Source: an uncultured virus (IMG/VR IMGVR_UViG_3300029955_000023) (Duplodnaviria > Heunggongvirae > Uroviricota > Caudoviricetes). Taken from it: 20,000 nt of DNA. The first letter of the stretch is position 1; every line of letters starts with the position of its first letter. The notes beneath the pieces were generated by a model that was not told the origin of the DNA, searched no databases, and saw only the letters and a list, made by a program, of their open reading frames with translations. Both the position numbers and the translations under genes were made by a program. Below are positions 5,359 through 16,903 of this stretch, in pieces. Where the stretch lies: the IMG/VR virus record IMGVR_UViG_3300029955_000023; one strand, given 5' to 3'.

Positions 5359-5507
5359 TTAGGTTTCTCGTGAGACCTGAGGGAATGTTGCGCGCGACCT
5401 GACTCGTGCCCAATGGGCTTGCCTTTGAACTCGACGCGCTGGGGCTTGCGCGGCTTGGGCGGCGGTCGGACGGCTTGATGGGCCGGGCTGGCGGGCGCGT
5501 CGGTCAT
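5355..5507 (-). CDS. Small basic protein (50 aa, MTDAPASPAHQAVRPPPKPRKPQRVEFKGKPIGHESGRAQHSLRSHEKPK)
   Basis: Start overlaps the giant gene's stop (ATGA 5507-5504) and stop overlaps the fibre gene's start (ATGA 5358-5355), so it is coupled at both ends. The longer start at 5660 in the track is unlikely. Confidence 0.7.
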   Translation of the reverse strand: MTDAPASPAHQAVRPPPKPRKPQRVEFKGKPIGHESGRAQHSLRSHEKPK

Positions 5508-8500
5508 TGGCCGACCCCGAGCTTCGCCATTTTTTGCCGCGTCGCGTCGGCCATGATCTGTGGATATTTCATGAAAAGCACCCCGCGCGCCGCCTCGCGG
5601 CTGTGTTCGACGATGGCCTTGACCGCATCGACGCGGACGCCAACGGGCCATTGACGCCAATCCGGTGAACGCACGAACACGTCGAGGCGCTGTTTCGCCA
5701 TCCGGCCGGCGATGCGCGCGAAGTCATCATACTGCTGGTCTGTCAATTGCACATTTCGGATGGTTCGATCAACGGGGGCTATCCCGATCCCAAGTTGCGC
5801 GAGCGATATGTTCACCGGGTCTTGGCTCATCCGCTGTTCGTAAATCGCGGTGGCCCCGGCGGCGATCAGCGCATCGCGCGACGGAATCGGCTGGCCCCAA
5901 ATGTCGAGACGCGGAAACAGTTCTTCCGACATGCCGGGAGTTTTGGCGCGGATCGAGTCCATGACCGTGCGGGCCTGCCGAGAGTATGGGTCGCTTGCGC
6001 GCGCCATCTGCGCCATGCCGACGCTATACGGCACGAAAGACGATGCGAAATTCTGGATATAACGCTCGCCATAGCGGCCTGGGTCTTCAACGGCCTGGAT
6101 CAGTTCGGCCGGCCCGCGCATGAACGACTCGTCCAGCACGTTTTGCGTGACCGCGTGCTGCATCAGCGCGGCGGCCTGCAGCATGTCGCCGGTCGACGCC
6201 GTGTGCGCCACGTCGTACAGATCGGCTGACATGCCGAGCAGCATCCCGAGCGGCCCGAGCCGGTTCATCGCATACCAAGTGTCTCCGATCCGAACGGAAT
6301 GCGGCTGGTTTCCGGCCATGCGCCACATCGCGGCCTTGTTGCGATCCATCGGGCCAGAGCCGCTCACGTAGCCACTGGCGGCGAGCGAGCCGAAGCCAAT
6401 CGACAGCGCCGTGCCGACGATCATGCGGGCCTGCGCCATGTCCTGCGCGGCGACGCCGTTGCGGCCCATCAGGTCCGCGCGGATTTCCGACGACAGCAGG
6501 CCGGCGGGCGTCCGCTGCACGATGGACTGGTCGATGATATTCGCCGCGATGTGGACGAACGGGTCGATAAACTTGAGGATCGGCGTCTCGCCGAGGCCGG
6601 GCAGATTCGGAGCCCAATTGGTCAGTTTCGATAGGTGCTCGACGAACTTGCCGGCAGGCCCCATGAGCGTGAGGTCCGTCGCCCCCTTCGTCGAGGCCGA
6701 CATGATGTCATCGGGCGTGTTCAATCGCAATTGCGCGATCTTCGCCGCGTCGCCTTCGGCCTGCCGGTAGATCAGCGCCGATTTCTCGATGCTGTAATTC
6801 ATGGCTCGAAAAAAGGTGTGGATAGATGCGATGGCGCGGCTCGGCGCGCGCGCAAGCTGCCCGATCGGGATCACGCCCCCTCGAACCCGGACGTCGAAGA
6901 TAGCGCCCATCGGCGAATACATCGGCGCGGCGGTGCGCTCGCCGGCCGGCGTCGCCTCAAGCACCTTGCCTATGGCGAGCGCGCCGTCGAGCACTCCACG
7001 AAACGCGCCGAAGATCGCCGCCTTGGCGTCCGCGCGCGTCGCGCCCTCGTTCAGCATCTTGCCGGCCAGCGGGAGCGCCTGCTCCGGCTGATAGGGGAGG
7101 GCACGCACCTTGTCTTGGCCGGGAAGCCGCCCGGTCAGGCCGGTGCGGAAAGCGTCGGCCGCCGCTGTGACCGCCGGGATATAGCCAGACGCCGCGCCGC
7201 GTAGTCTGGCCGCCACCTCGCCGAAGCGGACTACGTTCGAAGTGTCGCGACCCATTGGGCCGCGCAGCGCGCCCAGCGCGGCGGCTGTGGTGGTTTCGAG
7301 CAAGCCCTTCTGCATCGACAGGATCATGTTGCCGATCACGTAGGTTGTATGCGTCGCCGGGCCGGAGATCAGCCCGTTGATCCAGTATTCCAGCAACATG
7401 CGACCGAACGAATGCTTCGCGGTCGCGTCGGTCAGATAGGCGATGGCTTCCGGCGTCTCGTAGGCCGCCAACAGCTTCATCTCCTGCGTCTTTTGGTAGA
7501 GCGTGCGGCCGGTCGCCGCGAGCATCACCTTGTCGATATCGCCCTGCATCATGCGGAAGATGTTGAGCGCGCGGCCCGCCTCCGCCGTCGCGCCCATGAT
7601 CGACTTAAGCACCATGTCGAGCCGGGCCTGTTCGGTCGCGAACGCCAGCACGCCTTCCGGCGACTCATCCTTGAGCCGCGAGATGCGCCCTACCTCGTTG
7701 GCTTGGTCGGTCAATAGCTCCTTGAGCGCCACGATCTGCTCGGCGTTCATCGCTCGCCCGCGCACCCAGCCATCGACCAAATCGGCCGCGCCAAACTTAC
7801 CCATCGCCGCGGCTAGTTCCTGCGTTTGCGCCCACGTCGTCGGCGCGCGGCGGTCGCCGATGAAGTCGCCATTCGCCTCGGAGCGCGCCTTGATCGCCGC
7901 CCACACGTCGTCGGCGACGTTGATGTTGGCGCGCTTGAAATTGCCCGCCTTGTCTACGTAGGGGGATTCTCCGTCCCCGATGAGCCTGACGGGCCGGGGG
8001 GCGAGGGGGGCATCCCTAAGAGGGTCGCTAGATTCGGGTCGTCCGCTGGCGGAGCCTCCGGCGGTGGGCTTGCCGACTTCTGCCGGAGCTGCATTTCCGC
8101 CTGCGCGCTCCTGGCCGCCTGCGCCGCCCATGACGCCGCCGCCGGACTGAGCCCCGGCTTGGCCGCCACCGCCGACCATTTCTGGTAATCCGACGTCGCC
8201 GCGTCCAACTTCTCCTGCGGCGTCGCCTCCTGGTCCTGCTGCTGCGGCTTCGACTTCTTGGACGGCTTGGGCGATTTCATCGGCGATCTCCGTCGGCGGT
8301 TGAGCGTCGTCAAAATGCGGCCGCTCGGCCTCGACCCGGTCGGCCGCGCCGCTCGCGTGTTCGTGCGGCGTCTGCTCGGCGGCTTCCGCGTGGAGGTCGT
8401 CGAGGCCGCGCCCCGGTTCCGCGTGCGGCGCGATCACCGTAGCGCGATCTTTCGTCTCGTGCATGTATTCGAACACGCTGCGTAGCGCCGGACTGATTTC

Positions 8501-11500
8501 TACGTTCAGGCCCTCCACCCGATCGTAGAGAGGGAGCATCCAGTCGCGGAACATCTTGAACACGCCGTCGAGCGCGCGCGTCGGCGCGGTTCCCTCGTAA
8601 AGCCAGCGCATGTAGCCGTTGGCGAACTTCTCGTGCGCCTTGGTCGAGATCACGTTGTCCGCGCCAACGCCTGTTTCGCGCTTGGCAACCTCCCACATAT
8701 CGCGCATCCGTTGCGGCGCTTCAGGATGTGCGGCGTCGCGCTTGAGCATCTCGAAGAAATCGTGGCCGAGTTCGTGGATCGCCGTCGTCGCGTTGGCAAT
8801 TTTCATCAACGTGATGATCGACCGCTGGCCGAGCCGCAAGAGGATGCGGCCGAACTGGCTCTGCTCAAGCTTGCGCTCGTCCTCATCTGGCTTCTCGGCT
8901 TCAATGGCCTGCGGAGCCTTTGACGGGTCTTTCGGCTTCAAGTCCTCCGTCAGCGCGGCCAGCTTCGCAGCCGCTTCGGCGTATTCCGCTTGGCGCGGCC
9001 ATGTCGCCGCCGCTGCCTTCGACAGCGTGTCGTATTCTTTCTGGTTCCCCGCGATCTGCGCCTCGACGCGATCCGCCTGCGCCTTGATCTCCGCGAGCAA
9101 CCCGGTGAACTTCGCCATCAGGCCGACCGGATCAGTCTCGCTGTTGATGATGAACTCGTTCGGGCTGGCGTAAAGGCTATTTCCCTCAAGCTGTAGCTTG
9201 CCGACGGTGATGATGTTTTCCTCTTGCGACGCGCCGCCGTAGGAATAGCTGCGCCTCAATTCGATGCTGGCCGGGAAGCCGCCAATCTCGCCGAAGTTAA
9301 GTGCGCGGGCGCTATGGCTCAATTGCGGAGCAATCCGCAGCACGCCGTCACGCACCTTCTCGCCGGCTGCTTTCCGGTCCGTGAGCGTGGTCCCGTCGCT
9401 CAACGTGATCTTGAACTTGTCGCCGCGAATGTCCTGCACGCGCTCGGAATCCTCTTTCGCAGGCGCAAGGTTCCGCTTCAATTCTTCAATGTGAGATTGC
9501 AGGCCCTTCACCTGCCACGTCGCACGCTGCTTGGTCTGGTCGAAACCGCGCTTTTGCGCCGTCAGTTGCCGCACCTGCCGCGTCAGTTCGGCGTGCTGCA
9601 TGATGCGCGGGTCGCCGGAGGCCGCCGCCTTGAGCATCTCGGCCTCGGGCAACGGGTTGTCGATGTCCTCGGCGACGCGGACGCCCTTCGATCCGCTGTT
9701 GACCTGCCCGATGAACTTCGCCTTGCGCTCTAAAAGCTGCCAGCGCGTCGCGTCCAGCGACCGTTCGGTGATGTAGCGCAGGATATGGACCTCTTTGTTG
9801 AGGTTGCCTTGGCGCAAAATGCGCCCATCGCGCTGTTCGATCTCCGCCGGCTTATGTGTCGGGTCCATGTGGTGCATGGCGATCAGGCGCTTCTGCGCGT
9901 TGGTGCCGACGCCCATCTTTTCCGTCGAGCCGATCAGCACGCGCGTCACGCCGTCATTCATGCGCGCGAATAGGGCGCGCTTCTTCTCATCGCTGTCGGC
10001 GTCGTGGATGAACTCGATCTCCTTGCGCGGGATACCTTCGGCCACAAGCCGCTGGCGCATGTCCTCGTAAAGATTGATCGGTGGCGGCTTCCCGGCCGCG
10101 CTCTCGTCCTTCGGGACCACGGTGCGCAGCGCCTTCTGCTCGGCCTTGGTCAGATCGCCCCACGAACGCTGCCAGTCGCGGTCCTCAATGTTCTTCGTCG
10201 ATCCCGCCGCGCGCGCCCAATCCATGCGCTCGTCGCCGGTCACGGCGTCCCAAGTCGCGGCGTAGCCTTCATCGCTCTCGGCGACCCTGGCCTTGGGCGT
10301 GCCGCGATCCATGAACACCATCTGCGAGCGCGCGTTCGGATCGTCCTTGTAGCGGTCGTATATGTCTTTGATGTTCTTGACCGCGAGCGCGATTTTGCCG
10401 TTCGGGTTGAACTCCATCGGCTTCGGCACCGCAAAGCCCATGATGTCGCCGTCGCGCAGCAAGCGCCCGTCGAGCGCGGCCTTGTTCCCGGCCCCCATGA
10501 GCGACAGCGTGTTGTCCTCGCCCTTCTCGCGCCGCAGGCCCTTGATCTCGGCGAGGCGCTCCACGATGCGCCGCACGGCGGCTTCCTCGTGCTCGGAAAG
10601 CTGCGCGGTGTGAACTTCGATCCCCGGCTTGCCGTCGCGCGTCATCAACGCCGGGCGTGGCAGGTTCAACTGCTCGGCCGATTGCGAGTCGGCGATCTCG
10701 GAATAGAGCGAGATCAACTCGGGAATGTTGACGAACTTCGAGAACGACGTGACGTCTTTGATCGACCTCCCGTCGGGAGCCATCTCGGGCTGCGTCACCA
10801 CCTTGCCGAAGGTGTTGCCCCAAGCGTCGAACTTATCCAACCCGCGCTCTTTGAGCTTGTCGAGTTGCAGATAGCGCATCATGGTCCAAAGCTCGGCCAT
10901 GCTGTTCGACATCGGCGTGCCGGTCGCGAAGATCGCCGAGCGCCCAGGCTTGCGCTGCTCGAGGTAGCGAATCTTCATAAACAAGTCCTCCGACCGCTGC
11001 GAGGCGGCGGAGGAAAGCCCGCGAATGTTCGAGTAGCGCGTCGGGAAGGCAAGGTTTTTGAACAGGTGCGCCTCATCGACGATCACTTGGTCAATGCCCG
11101 ATTCCTCGAATGTCGTTCCCTCGTCCTTCACTTCGTCGTTCAACAGTTTTTGCAGTCGGGCGTTCATCTTCTCCATCGCGCTTTCAAGCTGCTTGACGGT
11201 GCGCGACTTCTTTGTTTCCCCCGCCGCACGATCCGCCGCCTGCTGCGCTTTAAGCGCTTCGCGATATTCCGCAAGCTGGTCTTGGATGAATTGGCCTTGC
11301 GTTTCGCTCGATACGCCGATGCGTCCGAACGCGCTGTGCGTGAAGATCACGGCGTCCCAATCGTTCGAGGCGGTTTTGGCTACAAACGCGCGGCGCGCGT
11401 CGGGCGACATCTCGTCCTTGTTCGCCACTAGGATGTTGGCGTCAGGATAGGCCTGAATGAACTCGGTCGAGAATTGGTCGAGCATGTGGTTCGGGACGGC

Positions 11501-14500
11501 CACGCAAGGCTTTTGAATAAGTCCCAGCCGCTTTTGCTCCATCGCCGCCGCTATCATCGTTACGGTCTTACCGCTCCCGACCGCGTGCGCGAGCAGCGTG
11601 TTGCCCTTCTGCAAGATGCGCCAGACCGCGTTCTTTCGGTGCGCGCGGTCGGTGAACATCGGATTGAGGCCCGGTAGCGTCAGGTGCGAGCCGTCGGCCT
11701 TCCATTGCACCAGATCGTTCATGGTCCGATTGTAGACGCCCTCAAGCAATTCGCCGCGCTGCTGGTCCGCGAACGCCCAAGGCTCCACGCCCTTGTCAGG
11801 GTCGCCGGAGAACATCGAGCGGATTTCCTCGATCTTCGCCGCGACTTCTTCTGTCTTGGCTTGGTTCACAACGCGCGTGTCGCGGTCGATCTGGTCATAG
11901 ACCGTGATCTGATTGTTGTTGAACGCCGCCTTCATGATCGACTTGAGAGTGACGTCAGATCGACCGACGCCCCATTTCGTCTCTGCCGATGGCTTGAAGC
12001 GGTCAGCCTCGACGCGCCATTCCTTGTTGACCGGCAGCAATTCGACCTTCGGATTGACCGCGCCCAATTCCTTGAGGAAGTCGGCGTGGACCTGCGCGGG
12101 TATCCACGGTGCGCCCAACTGCGCCGTGATGTCTACGGCTGTCAGCAGGGGCGGCTGCACCTTTTCGAGCGCCGCGACGTTGCGCGCATAGGTCGGATCG
12201 GTCGCGGCGATGGCGCGCGCATCTTCCAACTTCTTGATGACGGTTCCCGACAGGTATTGATCGGCGGATTCCCATTCGCGCCCGTTCGGGTTCTGGTAGA
12301 TCAGGTCGCCCAAGCGCGCGACAACCTCGTCCTCGTCCTTCGCTCCCATAAGCTTACCGATCTCTTGCAGATCGACCTTGCCTTGGGTGTCAAGCACGGA
12401 CGCCAGCGCGTCGGCGGAACTGTTGATCTTGCGGTCCACCGGCGCGGCGATGACGTCCTTGGTCTGGATCGCGGCGCGCGTCGCCGTATCCTTCTCAGGA
12501 TCGTAATTCTCAATGGACGCAACCTTGTAGACGTCGGGGTCGTCGCGGAATTCCTCGAAGTTCGGATGCTTGATGCGAACCTGCGGGTTGCCGTCAGCGT
12601 CCAGCTTCTTCGAGACGATCTTAACCTCTTTGCGGATCGGGCCGTGTTTCGCCACGAACTCGTCGTAGGCGTCGCGCAGCGCCTCGCGCAGCTTCTCGGC
12701 GTCGCCGCCCTTGCCGAGTTGCGCCTTGAGCAGATCGTTGTAGATGTCGCGTATGCCGATCAGCTTCGACACGCGCGCAACGGTCTCCGGCGACATTTTC
12801 TGCGGCTCGCCAATGCCCTGAACGCGCCGGTAAATCTGGCCGTCTTTGAGAGCGTATCCGCCTTCTTTGACGTCCATTCCCATGTCGTCGCGATTGATGG
12901 TCGGCGGCGGCGGCGTGGCGCGCTTGGTGAAAGCGCCGGGCGGCATTTTTCCCGCCGCCTCGCCGATCTTGGCGCGCAAATCGTCCGGCTCGCCCATCAG
13001 CACGGGCTCGTTCGCTCCATACATCGAGCCTTTCAGCCGCATTTCGCCGAGCATCATGTCGGGGCGGTCGGCGAAATACTCGTTGATGTGCGTCGGGCCT
13101 TCCGGCGTCTGGATTTCCTTCGTGTCCATCCAGTCCGCGCTCGCGAACGGAGCCTCGCCCGGAATCTTCTTGCGCAGGAAGATAATGTCGGTCGTGACTT
13201 CTGTTCCAGCGTTGCCGGCGAATGCGCCCTCCTTGCCGCCTGGCAAGCGGATCGCGCCCACAAGATCGGCGTCTTTCGCCAGCCGCGCGCGCACGTCCGA
13301 ATTGGCCTTGTCCATCGTCCCCTTGGACGTGATGAACGCCACCACGCCGCCAGGGCGAACCTTGTCGAGCGACTTCACAAAAAAGAAATCGTGGATCAGG
13401 TGAGTGCCGTGCGGCTTCTCCGTCAGCGAATAGCTGCCGAACGGCACGTTGGAGATCGCGAGATCGTAATAGTTCGACGGGCGCTTGAGCGTCTCGAAGC
13501 CCTGATTGTTGACCTCCGCGCCGCCGTATAGCGCCTTGGTGATGCGGGCGGACAGCGGGTCAAGTTCAACAGCGGTCCATGACGTGCGCGGCGCGACGCT
13601 ATCGGGAATGAGACCGATGAAATGGCCGATGCCGGCCGACGGCTCGATGGCCTCGCCGCCCTTGTAGCCGAGCGCCGTCAGCGCATCCCACATGCCCTTG
13701 ACGACTTCCGGCGACGTATAGTGCGCGTTCTTCGTCGAAGCGCGCGCGGCGGCGTATTCCTCGTTGGTGACGAGAGCGCGAAACGCCTTGCGCTCCGCCT
13801 TGAACTCATCCTGCCGGTCGGCATTGAACATCTTTTCAGAGAACGCGCCCCAGCCGGTGTATTTGACCAGCTTCGCCTTTTCCTCTTGCGTCGCCTCGCG
13901 CGCCTCGTCCTCGATCAGCTTGAGCGTCTTGATCGCGTCGATGTTCGCCCGAATCTTCGCCTTCGGGCCGCCCTCGCCGATGGCGTCGGCGTCGGTGATG
14001 CGATAGTTCGCGCGCGACCGCTCCGCGATCTTTTGGCGCGCTTCTACTCGTCCTGCGGCTGCGGCGTCGGTTGATGGATCAGGTCGTGCCTGATCAGTTC
14101 CGTCAGAGCTTCTTGGTGGCCCGCTAACACTTTCTCCCTCGCCAACTGGTCCAAGTCCCTCGTCTCGTCGAGCTTCTTGAACATTTCGTGGTTCATCGTC
14201 TCCGCCGCCGACTCCCCCACCGAGGTCAGTCGTGCTTGGAGTTTGCCGGATTGGCTTAGGCTCCGGTGCAGGCGTGGGTGATTCGCTTTCAGGAAGCTCT
14301 CGTGCTCCGCCGCGAACCGTCTCTCCATCGCGTCCATAATCGACACTCCATTCCGGCGCGCTCGCCCAGGCGTCATCGAACAACTTGAGCGCCCGATCCA
14401 TCACGTCGCGGTAGATCGCGGTATCAGCCGGGTCGACCGATTCTTTCAGCCGCTTCACCGGCTGTCGCATCTCGTGCGCCTCGTCCATAACCCGCATCAC

Positions 14501-16903
14501 GGGCTCAGGGACAAGCTGCAACTCCGCCGACATGCCGTCGCCAAGGCCTATTTGCAAGTGGATGGCGCGATAACCTTCCTTGCCCGGACGAATAAAGTCC
14601 TCGGCCTCGATTATTGCGCCCGTTGCCTTGATTTTGTCGAGAATGGCGTCTAGGTTTTGAACGTGGTCGACAACGATACGCGCGCCGAGATAGTCGGATA
14701 TCGTGTTCGGGTTCCGCCTCTTCGCCGACAATTTGAGTTCGAGGCCCGGCAAGTCCTTTGCCCGCGCCCCATACACGCGCGCGCCGTCGACGCCCTTGAC
14801 TAGCTCGTTAAGCCTGTCGAGAAGCTTCGGCTTGTTTTCCTCGGCGGCGGCCAGCAGCGCCTTGTAGTCGCTTGATCCTTGAATTATCTTCTTACCGGAG
14901 GCTTGGTCGATGTCCCCCAACGAAAAATCGGTGAAGCGCGTAATCTCTGGCCCCTCGAAGATCGACGGCGGCATCTGCCGCATGGTCGAGCTTTCCGACG
15001 GCTCCGCGCGCTGCGAATCCTGGATCAAAGGCTCGGGCTGGGAGGAAGGCGGCTGCTTCCCTTCCGAGTTCATGTTCGCGCCGCCGGTCTCCTCGGAGCT
15101 TGCCTCGCGGATGGGCTGTCCCACTTCCGAGCTTTCCAAGGTCTGAACCGGCTCGGGCTCGGGTTCCGGCTCCGGCGCTTCCGCGATCTGCTCCTTTGCG
15201 ATCGCATCGACGTCCGGCTCCGGGGATGCCGCGCGCCGTTGCGCCTCCGCCTCGGCCTCCGCCGGCACGACGGGCAACTCAGGCGGCAGCTCGACCGACG
15301 CGACCACTTCCGGCCCGGTCTTGGCGCGCTTTCCGCCCACGCGGCGCACCTTGCCGTCCTCGCCTCTGATATCCGCGCCCTCGCGGCGATAGATTTCCTC
15401 CGGCGTTCCGATCTTGCCCTCGAACGCCTCCGAGCGCGCGGCCATGCGCGACGCCACGATGTGCCCCAGCGCCTCGGCTTCATCCGGCGGGCGTCCGGCG
15501 CTGATGAACTGGCGCTTGGCGTCGTCAACGATGGCCTGCAGGTCGCCGCCGCCGGCCGCCGCCTCGCCCTCCGGCGCGACCATCGCCCCGCCGACCTTCT
15601 CCGCCGCGCGCCGGTGCGCCGCGCTGATCTCTGGCGCGATGTCCGCAATCTTGGCTTCTACGGCGGTAACTTGCGCGTCGAGCGCGCCGTCGTGCGGCAA
15701 TTCGTCGGCGGCCTTCACGAGCGCGTCGCGCTGCGCGGTCAACGCCTCATATTCGCGGAACGCCTCGACGTGCGCGTCGCGCGCGAGCGGAGCCGGGTTC
15801 GGCAGTTCAGCCGTCCCGACGGTCGCTTGTTCCTCGCGCTGCGCGGCCTGCGCGGCCTGCTCCACGGCGGGCGGAGATTCCTCGTCGCCCATGAACGTCT
15901 TTTCGGTGCGAGCCGGGCCGCCCACGCCAAGCGCCCAGGCGTCGGTCAGCGTGGGGGGCCGCTCGCCATAAACGTAGTTTGCGTCGACGTCGGCCAGCGT
16001 GTGTTCTGGTCCGGCTGGCGGTTCGGTCACGGCTCCGTAAATGCCGCCCACGTCGTAATCCTGTCGCCCCCGGAACCGCTGACCTTGTTCCTCGAATGGC
16101 GGTTCTTGGGGTTTCAGCCCCATCACGTCATGTGCGGTAGTTCGCCCGAGCAAGCGCGGAATGATGCCCTCTATGGCCTCTCCGAAGCGATTTGGCTTGT
16201 TGAACACCAGACCGAAGCCGGTCGAGATCGCGACCTTGTTCCAATCGACGTCGCCCTCGGCCGCCTCTTGCCCCAACTCCATGCCGCCCATCAACGCGCC
16301 GCTGAATAGCCGCTGCGTCGCCGGATTGACCATTAGACGTTGGAGCGCGGTCGAGTTCTCCGGCAGTTTCGCCGCCGCTGAAAAACCGCCCGGTTTCATC
16401 GTCAGCGCGAACGGAGCCATGCCGCCGAGAAATGTCGCGTAGGGGTGCTGCTCTTGGTCGAGGCGCTGCTGGCGCTCGTCTTGGCCTATCGACTCCACCC
16501 ACGAATCCGGCAGCTTCGACAGGCCGTAATCCTGAGCCTTCTCAGCCGCGAACGATCCGCCGAACCCGCCGATCAAGCCGCCAGCAACGCCGCCGACCAA
16601 TTCGGAAATGCCGGTTTCGCCGAGGCCTGGGACCAGAGCGCCCGCCGCCGCGCCGTAGGCCGCGCCCGCTCCTGCGCCAGCGAGACCGCCCGCCGCCGGG
16701 AGCGCGCCGCGCGCCGCGCCTCGCGTGAACGCGCCGGACGTTGATGAGCCTGTCGGGTCGACGGTCTGGCCATTCAGCAGTTTCGCGAACGGGTCGTTCT
16801 CGTCATCGGCAGGCGGCGGCGCGGCCTGATAGCGCAGCGGCTGGTCGCCGCCGCCTAAGACGCCCGCAAACGGATCGGCAACTTGACCATCGGCATCGGC
16901 CAT
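5504..16903 (-). CDS. Giant DarB-like polyvalent (probably virion-ejected) protein, 3799 aa: RelA/SpoT-like + N6-MTase + SNF2 helicase + metallopeptidase-like + LPD38-like
   Basis: Single uninterrupted ORF with a TAATG overlap to the upstream gene and a Gly/Ala-rich hydrophobic N-terminal segment. Motifs are listed in the domain features. The MTase-helicase pairing is the architecture of phage P1 DarB and of large polyvalent proteins. Confidence 0.93.
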   Translation of the reverse strand: MADADGQVADPFAGVLGGGDQPLRYQAAPPPADDENDPFAKLLNGQTVDPTGSSTSGAFTRGAARGALPAAGGLAGAGAGAAYGAAAGALVPGLGETGISELVGGVAGGLIGGFGGSFAAEKAQDYGLSKLPDSWVESIGQDERQQRLDQEQHPYATFLGGMAPFALTMKPGGFSAAAKLPENSTALQRLMVNPATQRLFSGALMGGMELGQEAAEGDVDWNKVAISTGFGLVFNKPNRFGEAIEGIIPRLLGRTTAHDVMGLKPQEPPFEEQGQRFRGRQDYDVGGIYGAVTEPPAGPEHTLADVDANYVYGERPPTLTDAWALGVGGPARTEKTFMGDEESPPAVEQAAQAAQREEQATVGTAELPNPAPLARDAHVEAFREYEALTAQRDALVKAADELPHDGALDAQVTAVEAKIADIAPEISAAHRRAAEKVGGAMVAPEGEAAAGGGDLQAIVDDAKRQFISAGRPPDEAEALGHIVASRMAARSEAFEGKIGTPEEIYRREGADIRGEDGKVRRVGGKRAKTGPEVVASVELPPELPVVPAEAEAEAQRRAASPEPDVDAIAKEQIAEAPEPEPEPEPVQTLESSEVGQPIREASSEETGGANMNSEGKQPPSSQPEPLIQDSQRAEPSESSTMRQMPPSIFEGPEITRFTDFSLGDIDQASGKKIIQGSSDYKALLAAAEENKPKLLDRLNELVKGVDGARVYGARAKDLPGLELKLSAKRRNPNTISDYLGARIVVDHVQNLDAILDKIKATGAIIEAEDFIRPGKEGYRAIHLQIGLGDGMSAELQLVPEPVMRVMDEAHEMRQPVKRLKESVDPADTAIYRDVMDRALKLFDDAWASAPEWSVDYGRDGETVRGGARELPESESPTPAPEPKPIRQTPSTTDLGGGVGGGDDEPRNVQEARRDEGLGPVGEGESVSGPPRSSDGTDQARPDPSTDAAAAGRVEARQKIAERSRANYRITDADAIGEGGPKAKIRANIDAIKTLKLIEDEAREATQEEKAKLVKYTGWGAFSEKMFNADRQDEFKAERKAFRALVTNEEYAAARASTKNAHYTSPEVVKGMWDALTALGYKGGEAIEPSAGIGHFIGLIPDSVAPRTSWTAVELDPLSARITKALYGGAEVNNQGFETLKRPSNYYDLAISNVPFGSYSLTEKPHGTHLIHDFFFVKSLDKVRPGGVVAFITSKGTMDKANSDVRARLAKDADLVGAIRLPGGKEGAFAGNAGTEVTTDIIFLRKKIPGEAPFASADWMDTKEIQTPEGPTHINEYFADRPDMMLGEMRLKGSMYGANEPVLMGEPDDLRAKIGEAAGKMPPGAFTKRATPPPPTINRDDMGMDVKEGGYALKDGQIYRRVQGIGEPQKMSPETVARVSKLIGIRDIYNDLLKAQLGKGGDAEKLREALRDAYDEFVAKHGPIRKEVKIVSKKLDADGNPQVRIKHPNFEEFRDDPDVYKVASIENYDPEKDTATRAAIQTKDVIAAPVDRKINSSADALASVLDTQGKVDLQEIGKLMGAKDEDEVVARLGDLIYQNPNGREWESADQYLSGTVIKKLEDARAIAATDPTYARNVAALEKVQPPLLTAVDITAQLGAPWIPAQVHADFLKELGAVNPKVELLPVNKEWRVEADRFKPSAETKWGVGRSDVTLKSIMKAAFNNNQITVYDQIDRDTRVVNQAKTEEVAAKIEEIRSMFSGDPDKGVEPWAFADQQRGELLEGVYNRTMNDLVQWKADGSHLTLPGLNPMFTDRAHRKNAVWRILQKGNTLLAHAVGSGKTVTMIAAAMEQKRLGLIQKPCVAVPNHMLDQFSTEFIQAYPDANILVANKDEMSPDARRAFVAKTASNDWDAVIFTHSAFGRIGVSSETQGQFIQDQLAEYREALKAQQAADRAAGETKKSRTVKQLESAMEKMNARLQKLLNDEVKDEGTTFEESGIDQVIVDEAHLFKNLAFPTRYSNIRGLSSAASQRSEDLFMKIRYLEQRKPGRSAIFATGTPMSNSMAELWTMMRYLQLDKLKERGLDKFDAWGNTFGKVVTQPEMAPDGRSIKDVTSFSKFVNIPELISLYSEIADSQSAEQLNLPRPALMTRDGKPGIEVHTAQLSEHEEAAVRRIVERLAEIKGLRREKGEDNTLSLMGAGNKAALDGRLLRDGDIMGFAVPKPMEFNPNGKIALAVKNIKDIYDRYKDDPNARSQMVFMDRGTPKARVAESDEGYAATWDAVTGDERMDWARAAGSTKNIEDRDWQRSWGDLTKAEQKALRTVVPKDESAAGKPPPINLYEDMRQRLVAEGIPRKEIEFIHDADSDEKKRALFARMNDGVTRVLIGSTEKMGVGTNAQKRLIAMHHMDPTHKPAEIEQRDGRILRQGNLNKEVHILRYITERSLDATRWQLLERKAKFIGQVNSGSKGVRVAEDIDNPLPEAEMLKAAASGDPRIMQHAELTRQVRQLTAQKRGFDQTKQRATWQVKGLQSHIEELKRNLAPAKEDSERVQDIRGDKFKITLSDGTTLTDRKAAGEKVRDGVLRIAPQLSHSARALNFGEIGGFPASIELRRSYSYGGASQEENIITVGKLQLEGNSLYASPNEFIINSETDPVGLMAKFTGLLAEIKAQADRVEAQIAGNQKEYDTLSKAAAATWPRQAEYAEAAAKLAALTEDLKPKDPSKAPQAIEAEKPDEDERKLEQSQFGRILLRLGQRSIITLMKIANATTAIHELGHDFFEMLKRDAAHPEAPQRMRDMWEVAKRETGVGADNVISTKAHEKFANGYMRWLYEGTAPTRALDGVFKMFRDWMLPLYDRVEGLNVEISPALRSVFEYMHETKDRATVIAPHAEPGRGLDDLHAEAAEQTPHEHASGAADRVEAERPHFDDAQPPTEIADEIAQAVQEVEAAAAGPGGDAAGEVGRGDVGLPEMVGGGGQAGAQSGGGVMGGAGGQERAGGNAAPAEVGKPTAGGSASGRPESSDPLRDAPLAPRPVRLIGDGESPYVDKAGNFKRANINVADDVWAAIKARSEANGDFIGDRRAPTTWAQTQELAAAMGKFGAADLVDGWVRGRAMNAEQIVALKELLTDQANEVGRISRLKDESPEGVLAFATEQARLDMVLKSIMGATAEAGRALNIFRMMQGDIDKVMLAATGRTLYQKTQEMKLLAAYETPEAIAYLTDATAKHSFGRMLLEYWINGLISGPATHTTYVIGNMILSMQKGLLETTTAAALGALRGPMGRDTSNVVRFGEVAARLRGAASGYIPAVTAAADAFRTGLTGRLPGQDKVRALPYQPEQALPLAGKMLNEGATRADAKAAIFGAFRGVLDGALAIGKVLEATPAGERTAAPMYSPMGAIFDVRVRGGVIPIGQLARAPSRAIASIHTFFRAMNYSIEKSALIYRQAEGDAAKIAQLRLNTPDDIMSASTKGATDLTLMGPAGKFVEHLSKLTNWAPNLPGLGETPILKFIDPFVHIAANIIDQSIVQRTPAGLLSSEIRADLMGRNGVAAQDMAQARMIVGTALSIGFGSLAASGYVSGSGPMDRNKAAMWRMAGNQPHSVRIGDTWYAMNRLGPLGMLLGMSADLYDVAHTASTGDMLQAAALMQHAVTQNVLDESFMRGPAELIQAVEDPGRYGERYIQNFASSFVPYSVGMAQMARASDPYSRQARTVMDSIRAKTPGMSEELFPRLDIWGQPIPSRDALIAAGATAIYEQRMSQDPVNISLAQLGIGIAPVDRTIRNVQLTDQQYDDFARIAGRMAKQRLDVFVRSPDWRQWPVGVRVDAVKAIVEHSREAARGVLFMKYPQIMADATRQKMAKLGVGQ
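5700..6420 (-). other. LPD38-like C-terminal domain (approximate bounds)
   Basis: PHSVRIGDTWYAMNRLGPLGMLLGMSAD...SFMRG...DPGRY...ASSFVP...DPY...RLDIWGQP resembles, from memory, the conserved C-terminal region of phage giant ejection proteins. Confidence 0.55.
7954..8280 (-). CDS. Nested same-strand (+1 frame) ORF, 108 aa, unknown function
   Basis: GGAG (8291-8288) lies 7 nt before ATG 8280. Helical-looking core EKLDAATSDYQKWSAVAAKPGLSPAAASWAAQAARSAQAEMQLRQK. The host frame becomes a Gly-rich linker over the same interval. Confidence 0.55.
   Translation of the reverse strand: MKSPKPSKKSKPQQQDQEATPQEKLDAATSDYQKWSAVAAKPGLSPAAASWAAQAARSAQAEMQLRQKSASPPPEAPPADDPNLATLLGMPPSPPGPSGSSGTENPPT
8450..8870 (-). 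other. Zincin-like metallopeptidase (MPTase-like) domain
   Basis: HELGH (HExxH) at 8776-8762 with downstream HEKFA (H at 8635) supplying a candidate third zinc ligand. Confidence 0.65.
9690..11700 (-). other. SNF2/SWI2-type SF2 helicase domain
   Basis: Walker A AHAVGSGKT (from 11590), VDEAH (D at 11077), ATGTP, STEKMGVGTN and motif VI QRDGRILRQGN (Q at 9835). Confidence 0.93.
12920..14010 (-). other. N6-adenine DNA methyltransferase domain (DarB-like)
   Basis: SAM-binding EPSAGIGHF (E at 13645), AVELD, catalytic NVPF (NPPF-like; N at 13450), GAIRLP and TEVTTDIIFLRK. Confidence 0.92.
14044..14337 (-). CDS. Nested same-strand (+1 frame) TnpV-like protein, 97 aa
   Basis: GGAG lies 8 nt before ATG 14337. 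MDAMERRFAAEHESFLKANHPRLHRSLSQSGKLQARLTSVGESAAETM...EALTELIRHDLIH matches the remembered TnpV pattern YLKEH.P.LY..L..SGKL..HL..I...A.E...E.V..ELIY. The host frame is low-complexity here. Confidence 0.72.
   Translation of the reverse strand: MDAMERRFAAEHESFLKANHPRLHRSLSQSGKLQARLTSVGESAAETMNHEMFKKLDETRDLDQLAREKVLAGHQEALTELIRHDLIHQPTPQPQDE
14360..14880 (-). other. RelA/SpoT-family (small alarmone synthetase/toxSAS-like) nucleotidyltransferase domain
   Basis: Ordered SYNTH motifs: RAK (14764), SDYLGARI (D 14695), GYRAIH (G 14575), ELQL (E 14524) and AHE (H 14476). No hydrolase domain is apparent. Confidence 0.85.
14862..14901 (+). promoter_or_regulatory. Candidate antisense sigma70-like promoter plus SD for the nested antisense ORF
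   Basis: TTGTAG (14862-14867), 17-nt spacer, TATCTT (14885-14890), then GGAGG (14897-14901). Consensus match is only 3/6 and 4/6. Confidence 0.4.
14910..15146 (+). CDS. Nested antisense ORF, 78 aa, candidate antitoxin/immunity protein for the RelA/SpoT domain
   Basis: GGAGG lies 8 nt before ATG 14910. The sequence looks globular (VISGPSKIDGGICRMVELSDGSARCESWIKGSGWEEGG...FMFAPPVSSELASRMG), while the giant frame reads Ser/Pro-rich like an antisense shadow. Function is inferred from position only. Confidence 0.65.
   Translation: MSPNEKSVKRVISGPSKIDGGICRMVELSDGSARCESWIKGSGWEEGGCFPSEFMFAPPVSSELASRMGCPTSELSKV

Follow-up and report, generated by a model that had tools for sequence, protein, structure and literature searches.

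Two linkers of a giant DarB-like polyvalent gene from an uncultured phage probably carry small genes embedded in a second reading frame

We analyzed 20,000 nucleotides (nt) of DNA, referred to here as the window, from an uncultured virus of the class Caudoviricetes (IMG/VR record IMGVR_UViG_3300029955_000023), and focused on the gene for a giant polyvalent virion protein that fills positions 5504 to 16903 of the minus strand. This gene runs for 11.4 kb as a single uninterrupted frame of 3799 amino acids (aa). The window is part of the 40,880-bp IMG/VR record, and the same phage is also present on a 63,790-bp metagenome contig. Our data indicate that two linkers of the 3799-aa gene are probably dual-coding, i.e., that they contain genuine embedded genes, termed gene A (14337-14044, minus strand) and gene B (8280-7954, minus strand), whose out-of-frame reading forms the linkers of the giant protein.

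Both open reading frames (ORFs), together with a third one on the opposite strand (14910-15146, plus strand), had been singled out in an earlier reading of the window made from the sequence alone (hereafter, the sequence-only reading), which proposed that all three are genes nested in inter-domain linkers and equipped with a Shine-Dalgarno (SD) motif. All three ORFs were located exactly where that reading had placed them, as were their ATGs and the GGAG(G) motif 7-8 nt before each ATG. Gene A (97 aa, stop codon at 14046-14044) overlaps giant-protein residues 856-954, between the RelA_SpoT domain and the DarB-like module, and its ATG at 14337 lies 8 nt downstream of a GGAG at 14346-14349; a longer form of 110 aa would start at the ATG at 14376. 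Gene B (108 aa) overlaps residues 2875-2984, a Gly-rich linker, and a GGAG at 8288-8291 precedes its ATG at 8280 by 7 nt. Each of these two ORFs is contained whole in the giant gene, on its strand and in its +1 frame, and occupies one of its two glycine-rich linkers. In the giant frame, the T of either nested ATG falls on the third position of a Tyr or Asp codon, so that replacing it with C would abolish the nested start without altering the giant protein. The unusual composition of the giant frame described in the sequence-only reading was also found, with Ser/Glu/Pro enriched over the antisense ORF (S 0.16, E 0.14, P 0.11), Gly/Pro/Glu/Arg/Asp over gene A (G 0.17), and Gly/Ala over gene B (G 0.25, A 0.17).

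An SD motif in front of an ORF is in itself a poor guide in this gene. We searched for alternative-frame ORFs of at least 75 aa that begin with ATG and have GGAG within the 10 bases ending 5 nt before it (a spacer of 4-10 nt), and only the three ORFs named above were recovered. Among 300 synonymous-codon permutations, 1.48 ± 1.18 such ORFs were expected by chance and three or more occurred in 18.7%, while open stretches of at least 75 codons in alternative frames numbered 72 against a null of 69 ± 4.6. Thus, the presence of SD-equipped ORFs, taken alone, is within chance (3 seen vs ~1.5 expected), and it is the comparative evidence that raises gene A and gene B above it.

The gene A product belongs to a family of small proteins that also exist on their own. 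A phmmer search of 1.84 billion representative proteins returned 30 matches at E <= 1e-3, and 29 of them display the family motifs; P0025 was rejected as a false match, being a repeat protein that lacks those motifs. The 29 relatives are mostly 90-130 aa long (at most 308 aa), and the best matches are 61-64% identical to gene A (E 1e-31 and 8e-30). One relative (P0013) begins at the alignment column of ATG 14337, and another (P0006) begins one column earlier and has the same stop as gene A. The 110-aa translation matches the Pfam family TnpV (PF14198) marginally (27.3 bits vs a cut-off of 27, E 3.8e-6), and 29 of the 30 aligned gene A relatives also match TnpV, with a best E value of 4.6e-15. 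AlphaFold2 predicted four helices with a predicted local distance difference test (pLDDT) score of 89.5 and a predicted template modeling (pTM) score of 0.75, and these helices start at residue 13 of the 110-aa form, which corresponds to the start at 14337. In addition, the Atlas contains the 97-aa sequence of gene A letter for letter, and the Atlas model matches a TnpV cluster with a template modeling (TM) score of 0.78 over 89 residues. Foldseek found no PDB match for the gene A model at E <= 1e-3. Gene A thus reaches the gathering score of PF14198, a family of transposon-encoded proteins, and shares its small all-helical fold, although the window's own score is marginal and, unlike the family as described, gene A is embedded in another gene. 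The name TnpV derives from Tn4451.

Several other searches returned little. No relatives were found in viral contigs with single queries or with a family alignment, and a scan of genome contigs with that alignment gave one weak Oscillospiraceae locus that covers 26 residues and is uninformative. Similarly, tblastn of both products against GenBank phages gave no match, and among plasmids it found nothing for P0002 and one unannotated Subdoligranulum match for P0013. TnpV-like domains are joined to other short segments in P0010, P0011, P0018, and P0030, with 'IARA..RRVA.KYGD..LAKAAKEL' shared by P0018 and P0030 and 'AL(R/K)GQL..LP' shared by P0010 and P0011. P0028 might be taken for a protein with TnpV fused in frame to the opening of the DarB-like module; as judged from its sequence, it switches from TnpV to the giant frame in the 'RHDLI / ARPD' stretch and is better read as a frameshifted remnant.

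Scanning metagenomes for relatives of gene A uncovered 14 loci, 3 of which represent the same phage; the other 11 comprise nine distinct sequences. In three of these (L004, L009, and L013), open frames of at least 1167, 477, and 1671 aa contain the gene A ORF in their +1 frame, and the product of this ORF is 50, 44, and 36% identical to that of the window, respectively. The ORF is also nested in L005 (identical to L006), where the big frame is disrupted shortly past the beginning of the DarB-like module. A gene A homologue is present with the big frame interrupted in L008 and L012, and remnants that are truncated or frameshifted occur in L010 (identical to L011), L014, and L015. In every nested case, the stop of the gene A ORF directly precedes the giant-frame motif that opens the DarB-like module, which is ~73% identical among the gene A lineages. 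The module upstream varies, being RelA_SpoT in the window and Zeta_toxin plus ddrB-ParB in L013 (giant ORF at L013:2555-7567), and the module upstream of the cassette is therefore interchangeable. In six of seven metagenomic lineages, an ATG or GTG stands at the N-terminal boundary of the family and follows an SD-like motif by 3-9 nt; the motif was seen in L004, L013, L005, and L008 and, in weak form, in L009.

One feature of these loci was observed in the giant frame itself. In five of eight lineages (L009, L013, L008, L012, and L010), the TnpV motif 'SYLSSVG' reads 'QLSLFGG' in the giant frame, even where the giant frame is broken; its codons (AGC-TAT-CTC-TCT-TCG-GTG) are identical in four lineages, and L009 differs only at the first (AGT). 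The window has 'TTDLGGG' at this site (14200-14240). We take QLSLF to resemble the beta-clamp-binding consensus.

The gene B product, from an unnamed family, starts with a basic tail (MKS...), continues into a helical hairpin, and ends in a Pro-rich tail. Six database homologues of 99-120 aa are 49-85% identical to this product and have a common core with an invariant Trp; five of them begin with MKS, and P0040 begins with VKA. P0010, a protein of 246 aa, matches this core in its N-terminal region (42% identity over 48 aa, pairwise E 9e-8) and is TnpV-like in its C-terminal region. Longer proteins that contain the gene B sequence were sought and none was found, which is a weak negative. In all three IMG/VR loci (L016-L018), open frames of 2322, 2903, and 1448 aa harbor the gene B ORF in their +1 frame, with identities of 64, 51, and 44%, respectively. 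The gene B ORF lies between phrog_9880 and phrog_6651 in the window, L016, and L017, and L018 had no PHROG match. A GGAG(G) precedes the ATG or GTG by 6-7 nt in L016 and L017, and a weaker GAAAGGG was found in L018. For the closest pair (the window and L016), nucleotide differences amount to 0.292/0.25/0.458 at the three nested codon positions. The evidence for gene B is thinner than that for gene A.

Codon-position GC content offers a view of which frame is constrained over each linker. The single-coding DarB-like region has a profile of 0.60/0.46/0.84 in the giant frame. Read in the nested frame, gene A has 0.65/0.37/0.80 (with similar values in L004, L009, and L013), and gene B has 0.64/0.61/0.84 in the window and 0.67-0.70, 0.46-0.53, and 0.85-0.87 at positions 1, 2, and 3 in L016-L018. 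We then scanned the giant gene blindly in 240-nt windows for a +1 signature, i.e., the highest GC at giant position 1 and the lowest at position 3. It appeared at just two places, 13964-14383 and 8024-8323, which correspond to gene A and gene B, and a stricter threshold gave the same two places. Consistently, the GC content at giant-frame third positions (GC3) is 0.33-0.47 over gene A and its cultured-phage counterparts and 0.46-0.61 over gene B, compared with 0.47-0.91 elsewhere in the same genes.

Conservation is likewise highest in the nested frame. With sequences aligned on the giant frame, the mean BLOSUM62 scores for the nested, giant, and third frames are 1.82, 1.66, and 1.44 over gene A and 1.64, 1.33, and 1.20 over gene B; the giant frame is conserved slightly better than the third frame over gene A and much the same over gene B. 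The sequence-only reading had attributed the odd composition of the giant frame to a swap in which the nested frame is the constrained one, and both GC phase and conservation bear this out for gene A and gene B. It had also named conservation confined to the main frame as evidence against nesting, and for both genes it is instead the nested frame that is best conserved.

The giant frame over gene A and gene B is kept stop-free by selection. Indeed, synonymous recoding of gene A (20000 trials) left the giant frame open in only 9.3, 0.15, 1.7, and 0.055% of cases in the window, L004, L009, and L013, respectively, and recoding of gene B did so in 23% (window) and 13, 10.5, and 2.5% (L016-L018). 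In addition, where amino acids are identical, their codons are identical at a frequency of 0.642 (154/240) over gene A versus 0.539 (447/830) over the flanking domain, with pairs that are non-independent.

With the N-terminal 296 aa of the DarB-like module as the query, tblastn matched 91 GenBank phage records. We examined eight cultured phages (PBC5, Atu_ph08, POI1126, Gervaise, Bcep22, PEp14, VvAW1, and SopranoGao), and in all eight the +1 frame contains an ATG-initiated ORF of 102-109 aa, which an SD-like motif precedes by 6-9 nt. This ORF ends no more than ~100 nt from the start of the DarB-like match in six of them, and ~170 aa more of the giant frame intervene in Atu_ph08 and PBC5. In seven of the eight records, the ORF lies inside a single annotated giant coding sequence (CDS) and no small CDS is annotated over it, in agreement with the claim of the sequence-only reading that gene callers miss such ORFs; none of the eight records lists the ORF as a gene of its own. 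Gene callers forbid long same-strand overlaps, which explains why gene A and gene B are absent from the records examined.

Six of these phages encode products that begin with 'MN(L)xNW' or similar, and among them, aligned on the giant frame, the identity is 0.444 in the nested, 0.326 in the giant, and 0.348 in the third frame, with nucleotide differences of 0.398/0.363/0.508 by nested codon position. In Bcep22, giant-frame GC3 is 0.44 over the +1 ORF versus 0.91 elsewhere, and a GC-phase scan of the whole gene gave the +1 ORF as the only +1 signal. When the nested ORF was recoded, an open giant frame was preserved in 0 of 4000 VvAW1 trials; for the other phages, the proportion was 0.35% to 28%. 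The nested ORF of VvAW1 (L027/L030) displays a strong local departure in GC3 (0.75 vs 0.47 elsewhere in the gene), which is consistent with stop avoidance together with linker coding in the other frame. Separately, the giant gene of PEp14 (L031) has a second +1 GC-phase signal at nt 2384-2692 (aa 801-920) with an open frame of 103 codons; this signal has no relation to gene A or gene B and may represent a further embedded gene.

A number of observations weigh against two embedded genes or temper the case for them. The eight cultured phages were hand-picked, from 30 of the 91 records, to span hosts. Their ORFs resemble TnpV weakly at best, since the Pfam E values were 0.0025 for PBC5 (18.2 bits, below the cut-off) and 0.071 for Atu_ph08, and hhalign against TnpV gave E 0.0017 with a probability of 15% over 34 columns. 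The +1 ORFs of POI1126 and Gervaise had no Pfam TnpV match, and a local hidden Markov model of the gene A family scored the cultured-phage ORFs weakly (E 4.8e-5 to 0.035); we do not claim that these ORFs and TnpV belong to a common family. Among the metagenomic loci, the margin of the nested over the giant frame is modest for gene A, and the four fully nested gene A loci, taken together with L005, differ in nucleotide sequence to a similar extent at all three codon positions (0.419/0.379/0.408). L012 has no canonical start codon, and the SD motif of L009 is weak. As for gene B, it rests on six protein matches and three loci, it has no match in Pfam, PHROG, or the Atlas, and its AlphaFold2 hairpin, with a core pLDDT of 86-91, reaches a moderate overall score of 70.1. 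Moreover, both frames show shared motifs over the same DNA, and recoding the giant-frame linker kept the +1 frame open in 11-84% of trials for gene B and 21-79% for the cultured phages. Given that the +1 frame is often open by linker composition, openness of the nested frame alone proves little.

The PBC5 record deserves separate mention. Relative to Atu_ph08 (L022), it has a 1-nt gap at the linker start (L021, ~1640-1660), the giant gene is split into orf33 and orf23, and the upstream ORF of 2185 aa is thereby placed in frame with the small ORF. The gap could be a sequencing error or a natural variant, and the small protein of PBC5 could be a C-terminal domain rather than a separate protein, which also counts against independent embedded genes. 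This arrangement, in which the upstream ORF ends at the stop of the small ORF, is what would be expected if a fraction of ribosomes shifted into the +1 frame at the linker start and terminated at the small stop, yielding a truncated giant protein with a TnpV-like end besides the full-length one. The G/GT logic of tail chaperones offers a model for such a frameshift isoform; P0010, P0018, and P0023 have N-terminal extensions before their TnpV-like part, and, depending on the locus, 8 to 95 codons of open +1 frame precede the start. We nevertheless regard a frameshift isoform as unlikely, since the ORF has its own start and SD-like motif in six of the seven metagenomic lineages and all eight cultured phages, and homologues of 95-105 aa begin at the family-boundary methionine. 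In addition, neither an in-frame stop nor any other known stimulator of +1 shifting is present in the giant frame, as judged without a systematic search for slippery sites.

Two further explanations would dispense with embedding altogether. If only the giant frame coded, the nested ORFs would be an echo of a conserved linker and the small database proteins mis-called ORFs on fragments. The motifs shared by both frames and the frequent openness of the +1 frame fit this account, as do the short contigs (554-1826 bp) from which several gene B homologues come. It is at odds with the depressed giant-frame GC3 over both ORFs and with conservation, which is clearly better in the nested frame and no better in the giant than in the third frame, and gene A matches TnpV, folds with high predicted confidence, and occurs in L008 where the giant frame is interrupted; we therefore consider an echo very unlikely. 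Conversely, the 3799-aa frame might be open by chance, with three large and two small proteins being made in its place. Spurious long open frames are indeed common in high-GC DNA (antisense ORFs of 475-615 aa occur here), and PBC5 is annotated with two large ORFs. Against this, the giant frame runs without a stop in the window, in seven of the eight cultured phages, and in 6 divergent loci from metagenomes or IMG/VR; its openness is improbable under recoding, and the modules on either side share one frame. Phage JC1 provides a parallel, as its 4515-aa DarB-like protein (gp69) was detected in virions by mass spectrometry according to the parts of PMC9144972 considered here, a result that by itself does not prove continuity over the linker. 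That the giant frame is not one gene is thus highly improbable in our view, and two genuine genes embedded in one giant gene remain the probable explanation.

The proposal of the sequence-only reading, that the nested ORFs are real genes, therefore stands for gene A and gene B on the basis of homologues, nesting, SD motifs, GC phase, and conservation, and finds no independent support for the antisense ORF. The latter (78 aa; 14910-15146, plus strand) has a GGAGG at 14897-14901, 8 nt before its ATG at 14910, and its sole homologue is a 74-aa database fragment that is 92% identical; both features would favor a third gene. Nonetheless, a single near-identical relative carries no independent information, and the ORF has no Pfam or PHROG family match. 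The giant frame retains a normal GC profile over it (0.56/0.50/0.82), with the third codon positions of both frames coinciding, and our scan of the giant gene found no +1 or +2 GC-phase signature there. Within the giant gene, 17 stretches in the same antisense phase stay open for at least 75 codons. This ORF looks like chance, and we find it extremely improbable that it is also a real gene.

Given two embedded genes, each linker would result from reading, in the -1 frame, an entire small gene whose own frame is +1 to that of the giant gene. We postulate that the small proteins are made by internal initiation at their own SD-ATG on the giant mRNA, as for Rz1 inside Rz, and that giant-frame translation turns the same DNA into a flexible spacer. 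Third positions of a small gene, which are GC-rich, fall on first positions of giant-frame codons; the resulting codons specify Gly, Ala, Arg, Pro, Asp, and Glu and hence give a spacer of low complexity. Such an arrangement may have originated when neighboring module genes fused across a small gene, which survived in its own frame. Gene A may work with the DarB-like module, which always lies next to it on the 3' side. The notion of the sequence-only reading that enzymatic modules travel as self-contained cassettes with a partner gene holds by position only, with gene A at the 5' edge of the DarB-like module and gene B between phrog_9880 and phrog_6651.

We consider it possible, though somewhat short of probable, that giant polyvalent proteins grow by engulfing small intermodule genes whose products are dedicated partners of the adjacent module (e.g., to fold, package, restrain, or activate the DarB-like methylase-helicase). 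Under this scenario, an unannotated small gene would be standard in DarB-like antirestriction genes of phages of Alpha-, Beta-, and Gammaproteobacteria, and further such genes may be concealed in the linkers of other giant proteins of phages and plasmids. If the embedded genes are real, a conserved part of an antirestriction system that is widespread among phages has escaped notice, even in well-studied groups such as the Bcep22-like, PEp14-like, and Vibrio phages. They would also represent an unusual evolutionary route, in which a younger fusion gene retains an older gene within it and has the out-of-frame reading of that gene as its linker. A shift of codon-position GC phase inside a long ORF provides a simple general detector of such genes; in the window gene, it picked just gene A and gene B.

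The closest precedent is Rz1 within Rz of lambda and many other phages, where a small gene likewise lies wholly inside a larger one on the same strand, in another frame and with its own start. Rz1 lies in the +1 frame of Rz. In that system, however, both products are structured and act jointly in lysis, whereas here the host frame reads as a linker of low complexity, the embedded gene comes from an older family that is also found alone, and the host is an 11-kb multi-module gene with two embedded genes. The portions of PMC9144972 considered here describe the embedded class of Rz1 and report no embedded gene in a DarB-like gene. Overprinting in viruses creates genes de novo in alternative frames and, as outlined in the sections of PMC8227390 we drew on, similarly yields two proteins from one stretch of DNA in different frames; the polarity here would be reversed, with the embedded frame being old and the host frame over it derived and compositionally odd. 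Phage P1 encodes a small protein, Ulx, which aids DarB localization according to the relevant part of PMC9024508. Like gene A, it is encoded beside a DarB gene and is tied to DarB function there, yet ulx lies 3' of darB and is not embedded. Ulx was rejected as a homologue (hhalign E 0.33 and 0.88 with the gene A and gene B families, respectively).

In the sense of Iyer et al. 2017 (PMC5512222), the giant protein is a DarB-like polyvalent virion protein, given that several effector modules are combined in one polypeptide among virion genes. The polyvalent proteins described in the parts of that paper considered here, including the Bcep22-like DarB giants, have the same architecture as the window gene, and genes embedded in linkers do not form part of the description there; its main text, without the supplements, does not mention TnpV, frameshift, overlapping, or linker as far as these parts go. 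The literature we searched on DarB-like and polyvalent proteins yielded no paper describing embedded genes in DarB-like genes. Packaging of the giant protein into virions and its injection are supported by analogy only, i.e., by its likeness to JC1 gp69.

The modules of the giant protein, all encoded on the minus strand, were assigned by Pfam and PHROG matches. A RelA_SpoT nucleotidyltransferase domain (PF04607, 27.4 bits vs a cut-off of 27) is encoded at 14513-14764 (aa 714-797), followed by the DarB-like methylase-SNF2 helicase module at 8858-14185 (aa 907-2682; phrog_10089 antirestriction, E = 0, 1596 bits), within which Pfam places SNF2/ResIII at aa 1753-1960. The phrog_9880 module at 8357-8989 (aa 2639-2849, E 1e-27) lies just upstream of gene B and contains a HELGH motif, and an internal virion protein module (phrog_6651, E 7.6e-24) is located at 5855-6589 (aa 3439-3683). 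The suggestion of the sequence-only reading that each nested ORF abuts an enzyme domain (synthetase, methyltransferase-helicase, or peptidase) applies to gene A, which adjoins the methylase-helicase module, and does not extend specifically to a synthetase. As for the peptidase label, the HELGH motif is present in the translation, and no peptidase family was matched. A lysin-type protein with an SLT domain and tail proteins, again recognized by Pfam and PHROG, are encoded beside the giant gene. Finally, antisense ORFs of 475, 615, and 476 aa occur within the giant gene at 10004-11431, 11684-13531, and 14879-16309 (plus strand); they are much longer than the three ORFs of the sequence-only reading and are typical of high-GC coding DNA.

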